Source of the DNA: Escherichia coli
Lineage (GTDB): Bacteria; Pseudomonadota; Gammaproteobacteria; Enterobacterales; Enterobacteriaceae
Strand: one strand, 5' to 3'
Assembly (NCBI RefSeq): GCF_003790525.1
Contig: NZ_CP033635.1
Length of the DNA stretch: 64,000 nucleotides
A program made the position numbers and the translations under genes. Position 1 is the stretch's first letter, and every line of letters starts with the position of its first letter. Shown here one piece after another: positions 58,777-62,995 of the stretch. The notes below the pieces were generated by a model. That model did not search any database. It had not been told where the DNA came from and was given only the letters and a program-made list of their open reading frames with translations.

Positions 58777-59041
58777 CATTTTATAGTCCTTGTAGCTATT
58801 GGCAATGGAGTTATAAATACATGTGCGTTGGATAGGTAATATATATTATATCTGTGATGTATAGTATATGTGTAATGATGGATATGATGTACTAATAGAG
58901 CTAATGGTATTCTGATACCAAATAATTAGTTGTGTGTAGATCATAACTCTGTTTAATGTTTTAGAACGTTCTAATGTAACTGTGTAACATCATCCTGTTC
59001 TCTAATGTAACAATAGGCAGTAGCGTTTTTCTTAATTGACG

Positions 59042-59067
59042 CCCAGAGGGTTATATATCCCTCTGGG
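59042..59067. promoter_or_regulatory. perfect palindrome cccagaggg-ttatatat-ccctctggg
   Basis: 9-bp inverted arms separated by an 8-bp AT spacer, about 90 bp upstream of the 204-aa gene; flanked by direct repeats of tctaatgtaac. Confidence 0.4.
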
Positions 59068-59157
59068 AACTACTGATACGAATATTAATATCTGCTTCTG
59101 TTGTGTATTGGGTAGGTTAACTATTAGCTTATCTCTGAAAGCAAAAGGAATATTAAC

Positions 59158-59772
59158 ATGATTACGATTGAAACTCTTTACGGTGAATGTCATGAGGCTC
59201 ACGGGTTAAAAATAAGAAACCAGGTGAATAACCTCTTCCAGAAACATCCCAGAATAACGGCAATACGGGTGGATCTCCATTATCCTCCCGTGATTGACAA
59301 CGGGGATACCATTACCTGTTTTCCTAACCTGAGTCCCGGAGAGATATCTCGTTTCCGTAACTCGCTGAATGCGAAAATTAATGCAGATCAACACCGTAAA
59401 AAACAACAAGGCAAACGCACCTACGCAACGTCGGTTTGTATTATCTGGGCGAAAGAATATACGCAGTCCTTTAAATGTCATTATCACGTCTGCCTTTTTT
59501 TTAACAAAGACGCCTATTACCACCTGGGAGACTATGAGCGCTCTGACACCCTGAGAGGGTTAATTACCGGAGCCTGGTACAGTGCCTTAGGGTTAGAACT
59601 GGAAGATCACCAGGGACTAGTTCATTTCCCTGCTAATGGACGTTACATCCTGGATATTAACGATCCTGATTTCCCTGAGCAATATCAGCGCTTATTGGCA
59701 CGTCTGGATTATCTGACGAAGCTCGACACTAAAGCATCAGGCCAGCGTAACTTTGGCTACAGCGGTTTTTGA
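59158..59772 (+). CDS. HUH-endonuclease (rolling-circle Rep / inovirus Gp2-like, YagK/YfjJ-type) protein
   Basis: 204 aa; contains KCHYHVCLFF (H-u-H motif) and a downstream DYLTK (YxxK-type candidate catalytic Tyr); genomic context matches CP4-type prophage modules. Confidence 0.55.
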   Translation: MITIETLYGECHEAHGLKIRNQVNNLFQKHPRITAIRVDLHYPPVIDNGDTITCFPNLSPGEISRFRNSLNAKINADQHRKKQQGKRTYATSVCIIWAKEYTQSFKCHYHVCLFFNKDAYYHLGDYERSDTLRGLITGAWYSALGLELEDHQGLVHFPANGRYILDINDPDFPEQYQRLLARLDYLTKLDTKASGQRNFGYSGF

Positions 59773-59799
59773 CCTATTGTAACTGTAAGGTGATTTATT

Positions 59800-60366
59800 A
59801 TGTATACAGAATCAAACGTTAAGCTTTCCTGTAACGCCCTCTGGCAAAAGTATGTCCTTGCAACTCTGTATCGGGCTGCAGCTACACATCCTAAAATTAA
59901 ATTATTACAATTTAAATTAATACCTTGCCCAGGTATGAACAAGGCAATTCCCTCTCTGATGGCTGATTTTACTGGTGAACTGCATAGACTAATTTCTGAA
60001 TATTTGCAGTGCAAGCGACGTAAAGATAAATCTGTTGAGCCCGCCCCTTTATATTATCTCTGGAGTAGGGAAGCTGTGGCTAACGATACCACTCCTTATC
60101 TTATGGTACTGCTACTTAATAACGATGTCTGGTGTAAGAGTCGTGAGGTGGTGGCTCTCAGAAATCTGATTGAGCAGGCGTGGGGAAAAGTATTGGACGA
60201 AGATAACTCCATTACACATCAGGTTGTGTATCCTGAAGTGCTGTCGTTGGTATTTGATGCAGCTAACACATACAACGCTGAGCCTGGTGTACTGGAACAG
60301 ACGGCCCAGGCTTACATTGAATCGCATGGTGCCATTGAACGTCATCTTGGGTGTAGTGACTTTTAA
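59800..60366 (+). CDS. paralog of the preceding HUH/Gp2-like gene with degenerate HUH motif
   Basis: 188 aa; aligns by eye to the upstream gene (HPRITAIRVDLHYP vs HPKIKLLQFKLIP; HYHVCLFFNKDAY vs PYLMVLLLNNDVW; LRGLITGAWYSALG vs LRNLIEQAWGKVLD), but the two His of the HUH motif are lost. Confidence 0.5.
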   Translation: MYTESNVKLSCNALWQKYVLATLYRAAATHPKIKLLQFKLIPCPGMNKAIPSLMADFTGELHRLISEYLQCKRRKDKSVEPAPLYYLWSREAVANDTTPYLMVLLLNNDVWCKSREVVALRNLIEQAWGKVLDEDNSITHQVVYPEVLSLVFDAANTYNAEPGVLEQTAQAYIESHGAIERHLGCSDF

Positions 60367-60561
60367 CGACGTCAGGTGATGCATAAGGGCCTTTCGCTGA
60401 GAGGCCCTGTTTACACAATTAAATAAGTCGAACCCGACCAGCAATTTTGACGTTGACGGCAGGATTATTGAGGGGCAATCAATGTGTTCTTCGGCAGCGA
60501 TTACGGTAGTGAACGGACCTGCTGTCTGAATGGTATCGATCCGCAAGCGTATCTGCGCCAT

Positions 60562-61650
60562 TGGATTTGCCCCTATATTTCCAGACACCTGTTATCACTT
60601 AACCCATTACTGGCCCGCTGCCGTAGATATTCCCGTGGCGAGCGATAACCCAGTGCACTATGCGGATGCCATTCGTTATAATGCTCGAACGCCTCTGCAA
60701 GGTTCTTTGCTGCCGTTAACCCGTCTGGTTTGGGCATGATACTGATGTAATCACGCTTTATCGTTTTCACGAAGCTCTCTGCTATGCCGTTACTCTCCGG
60801 ACTCCGCACCGCCGTGTTCTTCGGTTCAAGTCCCAGCATCCGGGCGAACTGGCGTGTTTCATTAGCCCGGTAGCATGAACCATTATCCGTCAGCCACTCC
60901 ACTGGAGATGTCGGAAGCTCGCTGCCGAAGCGGCGTTCCACCGCTCCCAGCATGACGTCCTGTACTGTTTCACTGTCGAAGCCGCCCGTAGTGACCGCCC
61001 AGTGCAGTGCCTCACGGTCACAGCAGTCCAGCGCGAACGTGACCCCCAGTTTTTCTCCGTTATCACAGCGGAACTCGAACCCGTCAGAGCACCATCGTTG
61101 ATTGCTTTCTTTCACGGCCACTTTGCCAGTATGTGCCCGTTTCGATGGCGGTACAGCGGTTTTTCGCTCAAGCAACAGCGCATTCTGGCGCATGATCCGG
61201 TAAACACGTTTGGCATTGATAGCAGGCATACCATCAAGTTCGGCCTGTCTGCGAAGCAGCGCCCATACCCGACGATAACCATACGTGGGCAGCTCTCCGA
61301 TAACATGGTGTATACGGAGAAGCACATCCGTATCATCTGAGTGACGGCTGCGGCGACCATCTTTCCAGTCATCGGTTCGTCTGAGAATGACGTGCAACTG
61401 CGCACGCGACACCCGGAGACAACGGCTGACTAAGCTTACTCCCCATCCCCGGGCAACAAGGGAGACCGTCATTCCCGGTTCAAAGCTCTGCTGAACAATA
61501 GCGATCTTTTCCTGTGTAGTACGCCGTCTGCGTTTCTCCGGCCCTAAGACATCAATCATCTGTTCTCCAATGACTAGTCTAGAAACTAGTATTAAGACTA
61601 TCACTTATTTAAGTGATATTGATTGTCTGGAGATTCAGGGGGCCAGTCTA
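60562..61650 (-). mobile_element. IS2 (IS3 family) with internal deletion of about 240 bp
   Basis: IS2 terminal sequences recognised at both ends (minus-strand 5' TAGACTGGCCCCCTGAATCTCCAGACAA... and ...GGGGCAAATCCA 3'). Length about 1089 bp versus 1331 bp for intact IS2. Confidence 0.85.
60573..61559 (-). CDS. insCD: IS2 transposase derivative: in-frame fusion of InsC N-terminus (about 37 aa) to InsD
   Basis: Product [37 protein letters not shown]|[24 protein letters not shown]... with DDE integrase core. The junction lies between similar VAR/IAR codons; the native -1 frameshift region is missing. Confidence 0.8.
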
Positions 61651-61984
61651 TATATCAATTAATCATTAGTTTAAAAGCTTGTTCAACTGCATACATCATT
61701 AGCGTTTAAGCCAGTGAACAGGAAGTTTACTGGCTTAATTACAGTAATATAGTGTATCGCTATGCTCACTGAGTCTTAGATCTCCACCGTCGGTCTAATA
61801 TTCGCACTCCTGCTAACAACCGGTAATCAAATCGTCCTCCGGTATTGAAAGTTAATACACAAATCAGGATGATGGAGGCTCATACTGGTACAGCGCGACC
61901 ACTTATGCAGGCGTCTCTGTCAGGTTTGTTGCCCGGATCACCCGCATCAGGGACAGGGCTGTTCAGTTATCCGCAGGAGAAAAT

Positions 61985-62995
61985 ATGTCACTCAAGGCTA
62001 TCGCCGCCGAACTCGGGATCTCTGTCACCACAGTCAGCCGGGCGCTTGGCGGATTTTCGGACGTTTCCGCTTCGACCCGTGCACGTGTAGAAGCGGAAGC
62101 TCGGCGTCGTGGTTATCGCCCGAATACCCTGGCAAGACGTCTCAAAACCGGTAAAACCGATGCGGTCGGCCTGGTCTTCCCTGAACATGCTGTACTGTTC
62201 AGCAGTAGTGTGTTTGTGGATATGGTCAGTTGTATCAGCCGGGAACTGGTCCGCCATGATATTGACTTACTGCTGATAGCCGATGATGAACGGGCTGACA
62301 GCCACAGCTATATGCGTCTGGTCGAAAGCCGCCGGGTTGATGCCCTTATCGTGGCGCACACGATGGATAATGACCCGCGTCTTACACACCTGCAGGAGGC
62401 CGGTATTCCGTTTCTGGCACTCGGTCAGGTGCCGTCCGGTCTTCCCTGTGCCTGGTTTGACTTTGATAACCATGCAGGAACCTGGCAGGCCACACAGCAC
62501 CTGATTGCCCTGGGCCATCAGCGAATTGCCCTGCTGAGTGAGGACAACTCCCGTGCCTATGTCACTGCACGACGTCAGGGATGGCGCGATGCCCTGAGTG
62601 AACATGGTCTGCCTGAGACCTGGCTACGCCGGGTCTCTCCCACCCGACGCTCAGGTTTCCAGGCAGTGACTGAGTTAATGTCACTTCCGCTTCCCCCGAC
62701 GGCCATTATTACCGACAGTGACCTGATCGGTGATGGCGCGGCCATGTCGCTGCAGTTATCCGGTCATCTGTCCGGAGAGGATGCCGTCTCTCTTGTGGTT
62801 TATGATGGTCTGCCGCAGGACAGTATTATTGAACAGGATGTGGCTGCAGTTCTTCAGTCAACACGACATCGCGTCGGTCGTCAGATTGCCGACATGATAC
62901 GCCAGCTGGTCACGAATGTTTCACCTGAAATGCTACAAGTACTCTGGCAGCCGGAATTTCATCCTGGCAAGACAACGCTTGCTCCCTCCGCCTGA
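61985..62995 (+). CDS. LacI-family transcriptional repressor (RafR-like)
   Basis: 336-aa ORF MSLKAIAAELGISVTTVSRALGGFSDVSASTRARVEAEARRRGYRPNTLARRL... with N-terminal LacI HTH and periplasmic-binding-protein-like body; directly upstream of an alpha-galactosidase gene. Confidence 0.7.
   Translation: MSLKAIAAELGISVTTVSRALGGFSDVSASTRARVEAEARRRGYRPNTLARRLKTGKTDAVGLVFPEHAVLFSSSVFVDMVSCISRELVRHDIDLLLIADDERADSHSYMRLVESRRVDALIVAHTMDNDPRLTHLQEAGIPFLALGQVPSGLPCAWFDFDNHAGTWQATQHLIALGHQRIALLSEDNSRAYVTARRQGWRDALSEHGLPETWLRRVSPTRRSGFQAVTELMSLPLPPTAIITDSDLIGDGAAMSLQLSGHLSGEDAVSLVVYDGLPQDSIIEQDVAAVLQSTRHRVGRQIADMIRQLVTNVSPEMLQVLWQPEFHPGKTTLAPSA

Follow-up and report, generated by a model that had tools for sequence, protein, structure and literature searches.

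Insertion sequences of the IS66 family are bounded by terminal inverted repeats and carry an 8-bp target duplication. One of its members, ISEc23, encodes the genes tnpA, tnpB, and tnpC, in that order. IS2A of Escherichia coli K-12, which is 1331 bp long, belongs to the IS3 family. YagK/YfjJ (inovirus Gp2-like) genes are a feature of CP4-type islands and occur in many E. coli islands, and the raffinose (raf) operon of the plasmid pRSD2 type runs rafR-rafA-rafB-rafD ... rafY.

Counterparts of each of these systems meet near the end of the stretch of E. coli DNA analysed here, which is 64,000 nt long and which we call the window. Likeness and difference go hand in hand for all of them. The ISEc23-like piece shares 58% protein identity (with a 9-residue gap) and about 90% DNA identity with ISEc23, and its longer sister copies in other genomes keep the tnpC stop codon and an IS66-type right end (...GCTAAC, compared with ...GCTTAC in ISEc23); however, only about 84 nt are left in the window, without the catalytic domain, tnpA/tnpB, a terminal repeat, or a target duplication. 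The IS2 copy has the exact terminal inverted repeats of IS2A and is 96-97% identical to it in the parts that are kept, but it measures 1089 instead of 1331 bp, carries an InsC-InsD fusion, lacks the 5-bp target duplication, and, instead of standing alone as an insertion, marks the fixed left-hand border of a raf module. The gene upstream contains the PF11726 domain of YagK/YfjJ genes and is accompanied by the same 86-nt flank with a hairpin that goes with these genes in many E. coli islands, although this flank does not code for protein and no function has been described for it. The raf module, finally, has the gene order of the pRSD2-type operon, whereas it is chromosomal and sits in an island between nfeF and tRNA-Ile/mug with a deleted IS2 at its border.

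The subject of this study is the 195-nt interval 60367..60561, which the initial annotation had placed between an upstream gene and IS2 and had read as the possible 3' remnant of a gene truncated by that element. The delimitation is correct: the TAA stop codon of the upstream open reading frame (ORF) occupies 60364..60366, and the IS2 right inverted repeat TGGATTTGCCCCTATATTTCCAGACA, for which 0 matches are expected by chance, begins at 60562. The interpretation as a whole is partly supported. In our reading, to which we assign a probability of about 92%, the interval is junction DNA without a function that combines two unrelated pieces, namely the 3' flank of a YagK/YfjJ gene and a decayed ISEc23-like tnpC fragment that is cut by an IS2 seam. 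The features are collected in Table 1.

Table 1. Features in and around the interval, with window coordinates and the basis of each assignment
Feature	Coordinates	Strand	Basis
YagK/YfjJ-domain gene ("second HUH-like gene" of the initial annotation)	59800..60366	+	ORF; Pfam PF11726; PGAP
Conserved 3' flank of the YagK/YfjJ gene	60367..60452	+	Homology limits in L006 and L007
Hairpin	60386..60408	+	Folding energy; kept in homologues
25-nt linker between gene flank and first detectable IS66 homology	60453..60477		Common to all remnant-bearing loci
ISEc23-like IS66-family tnpC pseudogene fragment	60478..60561	+	tblastn, blastn, Pfam, PGAP
Scar of internal deletion in the tnpC fragment	60514..60517		Alignments with ISEc23 and remnant variant 2
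IS2 copy, 1089 bp	60562..61650	-	Terminal repeats; comparison with K-12 IS2A
Junction of IS2 internal deletion	61449..61462 (about)	-	blastn against IS2A
Left end of the raf (raffinose) module, starting TATATCAATTAATC	61651..62995	+	Same boundary in other DNA
LacI-type repressor gene	61985..62995	+	Within left end of the raf module

The ORF at the left edge of the interval matches Pfam PF11726 with E = 2.4e-9 and 37.8 bits (cut-off 25.8 bits), and PGAP names its product in locus L001 a 'YagK/YfjJ domain-containing protein'. It is the second of a tandem pair. The first YagK/YfjJ gene (59158..59772) scores 186.8 bits and has an additional weak match to Rep ORF2/G2P; the much weaker score of the second suggests a diverged or degenerating paralogue. 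Directly after the stop codon, the window, L001/L002, and L005 share a 3-nt ACG duplication (60368..60370; TTTTAACGACGTCAGG), and L003, L004, L006, L007, L008, and L014 read TTTTAAC(G/C/A)TCAGG at this site.

How far the flank of this gene extends can be seen from two loci in which it is followed by unrelated DNA. Homology to the window ends at 60452 in L006 (strain ChlosBP-23-1) and at about 60431 in L007 (O104:H4). Judged by these alignments, 60367..60452 travels with the YagK/YfjJ gene even where the DNA downstream differs. In the O104:H4 genome, FDAARGOS_349, the different sequence starts from the equivalent of 60432 (L007 3064..3230) and includes a 147-nt CDS annotated as 'replication initiation protein'; we take this sequence to resemble a plasmid origin of the ColE1/pMB1 type.

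The flank also holds the short hairpin that had been noticed in the interval. Quoted as gggcctttcgctgagaggccc (60387..60407), it is in full a 10-bp stem closed by a 3-nt loop, AGGGCCUUUC-GCU-GAGAGGCCCU, that lies 20 nt past the stop codon, has a folding energy of -15.9 kcal/mol, and is one of 14 hairpins of such strength in the 64 kb. All homologues contain it, although one position is mismatched in L003 and L006/L007 have a G-U wobble. The tail on its 3' side, UGUUUACACAAUU, is a weak U tract, and a terminator scan with a threshold of 5 T in 8 passed over the hairpin; its single hit in the region was a weak minus-strand site at 60439..60426. Owing to the poor U tract and the missing call, a role can only be inferred for the hairpin, which probably serves as a weak terminator or as an RNA stabiliser of the YagK/YfjJ transcript.

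The second piece is of an entirely different origin. The initial annotation had ascribed a coding-like composition to the sequence that follows the hairpin, and such a signal is real for about the last 80 nt alone, where it belongs to an IS66 tnpC; the first 86 nt, hairpin included, are the flank of the upstream gene. We compared the 537-aa TnpC from the full ISEc23 element of strain TUM9812 (L016) with the whole window by tblastn and obtained a single significant match, at 60484..60570 (E = 2.1e-7, with a 9-residue gap). It covers TnpC residues 477-514, of which 477-511 are encoded by the remnant and the last three codons lie inside IS2. Read from 60484, the frame gives VFFGSDYGSERTCCLNGIDPQAYLRH; as frame 1 (...GAINVFFGSDYGSERTCCLNGIDPQAYLRH) it then enters IS2. 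At the DNA level, 60510..60561 is 90.6% identical to ISEc23 (blastn, E = 1.8e-13) and is the only part of the window that ISEc23 matches at E<=1e-5, next to a weak 23-nt match at 60484..60506. The sole family match of the window fragment is to Pfam PF13817 (DDE_Tnp_IS66_C), with E = 1.5e-4 and 22.3 bits, below the 30-bit cut-off. A composite of both remnant variants, which is a reconstruction of ours and found in no genome, reaches 50.9 bits against the same cut-off of 30 bits.

Other copies of the remnant tell the same story at greater length. A longer sister copy is about 80% identical in DNA to IS66-type elements on 3152 plasmids, and this homology begins at the equivalent of window position 60478. 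PGAP treats the equivalent of 60484..60561 in identical loci as an incomplete pseudogene ('hypothetical protein') and calls the longer sister copy in L003 a frameshifted 'IS66 family transposase' with a missing N-terminus. The 25 nt that separate the gene flank from this homology (60453..60477) were considered as ISEc23 sequence as well and were rejected as such, since no convincing alignment to ISEc23 was obtained. Within the fragment, the scar at 60514..60517 marks the absence of 27 nt (9 codons) relative to ISEc23 and of 25 nt relative to remnant variant 2, and a short CGG repeat lies next to it.

By similarity, 60478..60561 is thus a fragment of an IS66-family transposase and neither an intact gene nor an intact element. 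Of a full-length tnpC (about 530 aa) with its DDE catalytic domain, only residues 477-511 are represented in the window; tnpA and tnpB are absent upstream of the fragment, where the neighbour is the YagK/YfjJ gene. The left end of the IS66 element is missing in every copy. L005/L014 retain its right end (...GCTAAC, then GATAATAG), which the window lacks, the sequence being cut by IS2 ahead of that point. The fragment cannot be a working element. Rather than the 3' remnant of a gene that had been proposed, it is an internal, near-C-terminal piece of tnpC whose own 3' end is missing, and it is ordinary mobile-element debris of an already known kind at a module boundary. The annotation label that is due is that of an IS66-family transposase pseudogene fragment.

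The distribution of the remnant across genomes allows its history to be traced. Among 5426 complete E. coli genomes, 515 carry the region, in each case on the chromosome. All remnant-bearing copies inspected (L003, L004, L005, L008, and L014) share an identical 5' junction, and tnpA, tnpB, and some 476 codons of tnpC therefore appear to have been lost in a single early event. The same loss is common to the IS2-free islands L003, L004, L005, and L014. Downstream of this junction, the copies fall into two variants. In variant 1, seen in the window and in L004, 27 nt are missing relative to ISEc23 beside the short CGG repeat. Variant 2 (L003, L005, and L014) keeps these bases but is 16 nt short between two GTATC repeats and contains frameshifts; in L005 and L014 it continues through the tnpC stop (...VDELLPWNVALTNK, stop) to the IS66-type right end ...GCTAAC.

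What IS2 did to this remnant follows from the genomes that lack it. In L004, which is of variant 1 and free of IS2, the IS66-homologous sequence extends at least 25 nt beyond ...CGCCAT, where it breaks off in the window, and L004 is otherwise 98.4% identical to the window over 190 of the 195 nt. The interval thus combines protein similarity with a near-identical counterpart in an island without IS2, so that of the two refuting observations named in the initial annotation one is borne out and the other is not. The exact junction between remnant and IS2 is found in 167 of 5426 genomes, and an uninterrupted remnant of the L004 type in 80 E. coli genomes. Since these 80 keep the uninterrupted form, IS2 would have cut the 3' end from a stump whose 5' part had been lost before. 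Hence, the idea of a gene remnant cut by IS2 stands for the 3' side and fails for the main truncation: the gene runs towards IS2, so the element took its 3' end and not its body. The comparison places the 5' truncation of tnpC before the arrival of IS2. As we picture the sequence of events, an old event common to hundreds of E. coli islands would have deleted the left part of the element (tnpA, tnpB, and about 476 tnpC codons), after which the stump may have decayed through small slippage deletions, with one lineage, including the window, losing 27 nt and another 16 nt.

In strain SCEC020022, a 5' piece of an ISEc23-like element lies about 25 kb to the right of the window's end region (L021 14130..14613). 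It consists of a frameshifted tnpA and a truncated tnpB, is 92.7% identical to ISEc23, and has the same strand as the tnpC stump. We considered the stump and these fragments as a single split element and abandoned the idea, as their order (stump first, on the same strand) is unlike that of a simple insertion.

The IS2 copy itself is well defined at both ends, where the terminal inverted repeats match exactly (right, 60562..60587; left, 61623..61650). With its 1089 bp it is shorter than the 1331-bp IS2A by an internal deletion of 242 bp. In blastn, positions 1-202 and 431-1331 of IS2A are kept and 203-430 are lost, and the deletion junction carries 14 nt of microhomology. The deletion fuses the first 37 or so codons of InsC in frame to InsD within a 343-codon ORF (60573..61604), the one IS2 ORF on which the Pfam domains HTH_Tnp_1, HTH_21, and rve are all found.

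Its flanks do not look like those of a simple insertion. The 5-bp target duplication is absent, with GCCAT on the left and TATAT on the right, and the continuation of the remnant, as known from the downstream sequence of L004 and L005, is present neither in the window nor in the 60 kb rightward in SCEC020022, a strain that matches the last 14 kb of the window save for an extra IS1 insertion. A synthetic query for the simple-insertion intermediate (the IS2 left end, GCCAT, and the rest of the remnant) found 0 of 5426 genomes. In strain CFSAN061769 (L020), a full 1331-bp IS2 lies between both junctions of the window. The junction of IS2 with raf is the more frequent of the two, being present in 234 of 5426 genomes. 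Strain 2452 carries the deleted IS2 and raf with 100% identity from the IS2 right end onward, adjoining phoH, and strain cq9 carries them with 99.8% identity, adjoining an ISL3 pseudogene. All in all, an identical deleted IS2 accompanies raf in at least three chromosomal contexts.

Because the target duplication is lacking and nothing further of the stump is left, we regard IS2 as a seam. It breaks the stump after ...CGCCAT, and its other side is permanently joined to the 10.1-kb raffinose-utilisation module. This IS2-raf unit may have been joined to the island by recombination (e.g., between IS2 copies), by movement of the unit, or by an IS2-mediated rearrangement, rather than by simple insertion; given that the intermediate occurs in none of the genomes, the mechanism is one that we infer. 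The initial annotation was right to suspect a historic rearrangement point here, as shown by the absent target duplication, the loss of the rest of the stump, and the IS2-raf unit at other chromosomal sites. Judged from the sequence comparisons, the junction between remnant and IS2 is a real boundary between the island backbone and the raf cargo.

Three other explanations of the interval deserve consideration. The first, that an ordinary (non-IS) gene of the island or its cargo lost its body to IS2, through insertion of the element or a deletion that it mediated, and left its 3' end here, is very improbable. The interval is cut by IS2, with no target duplication at the site, but the sole homology that can be detected is to an IS66-family transposase (residues 477-511 of 537), and the 5' truncation is also found in islands that are free of IS2. 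Frames do read into IS2 on both strands, as had been claimed: a plus-strand ORF of 54 aa (60484..60648) crosses into the element, and a minus-strand ORF of 158 aa (60588..60112) begins inside it and runs antisense through the region. The frame quoted as an example (...DVDGRIIEGQSMCSSAAITVVNGPAV, stop) is a different one, which ends at 60528..60530, 31 nt short of IS2, and is not the frame that bears the homology. The 27-nt deletion leaves the IS66 frame open, and a hybrid peptide might conceivably be expressed from the 54-aa frame. Yet the notion that either ORF encodes a functional small or hybrid protein is hardly tenable, as PGAP calls neither a gene in any genome inspected, the minus-strand ORF matches no Pfam family, indels of 25 and 16 nt together with frameshifts break or alter the frames in sister copies, and both ORFs need the IS2 junction, which is present in 167 of the 515 genomes.

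A somewhat better, though still improbable, case can be made for the first 86-100 nt as a functional structured RNA, such as a small RNA derived from the 3'UTR or a regulatory element, instead of a plain terminator hairpin. The 106-nt plus-strand fold of 60355..60460 is more stable than 200 of 200 shuffles (z = -3.73), the segment is kept beside YagK/YfjJ genes in differing contexts, and in L014 both partners of one outer-stem pair have changed. That very pair, however, is broken in two other sequences, and the consensus of six homologues gives a covariation term close to zero (+0.36), for which reason the larger fold was dropped. Furthermore, L006 and L007 have a shorter flank that lacks the 3' arm of this stem, and the single hairpin supplies most of the stability. 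A scan of 59000..62000 against Rfam (E<=1) returned two chance-level matches alone, both to eukaryotic families.

To the right of IS2, the genes are arranged as LacI-type repressor, alpha-galactosidase, MFS permease, GH32 invertase, and porin, an order that agrees with that of the raf operon (PMC12987596). From the literature on raf islands, we drew general context alone (PMC12987596). The module behaves as a discrete block of 10,107 bp (window 61651 onward; L011 36009..46115; L023); its copies on the E. coli chromosome and on an IncFII plasmid of Salmonella Saintpaul are 99.2% identical and have differing DNA on both sides. The boundary at 61651 recurs without IS2 in two places, on this Salmonella plasmid and in strain 98197. 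At its left end, TATATCAATT, the block has four neighbours that are unrelated to one another, and in two cases no IS is involved: IS2, an IS2-like element of an IncK2 plasmid, plain plasmid DNA, and, in strain 98197, the IS66 stump plus 8 bp.

The practical value of the junction between remnant and IS2 is that it locates the end of the backbone and the start of the cargo; beyond annotation, it matters little. With its presence in 167 of 5426 complete genomes, it may serve as a marker of one raffinose-positive island lineage at the nfeF/tRNA-Ile site, and the junction between IS2 and raf (234 of 5426) as a marker of the IS2-raf unit at any location. In SCEC020022, the island (716030..760672; L011/L021) lies between nfeF and tRNA-Ile/mug and ends in a tyrosine recombinase gene at the nfeF side and a tRNA gene at the far side; the 64-kb window itself contains no tRNA genes according to ARAGORN.

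From the island sequences at hand, the IS66 stump marks the border between the conserved island backbone and a variable region. One may also speculate that the zone of about 200 bp around it is a recurrent docking point for cargo instead of passive debris, with at least three cargoes starting in it or just after it, although we consider this unlikely. If it were true, the constant left end of raf beside four unrelated sequences would point to an IS2-independent and hitherto undescribed mobility of raf. The cargo that follows the stump varies (L003 5442..10148, L004 5344..10190, and L014): a type I Zorya anti-phage system is found in strain 350, a two-partner secretion/haemolysin-type locus in OkiPb01677, and raf in the window and in strain 98197.
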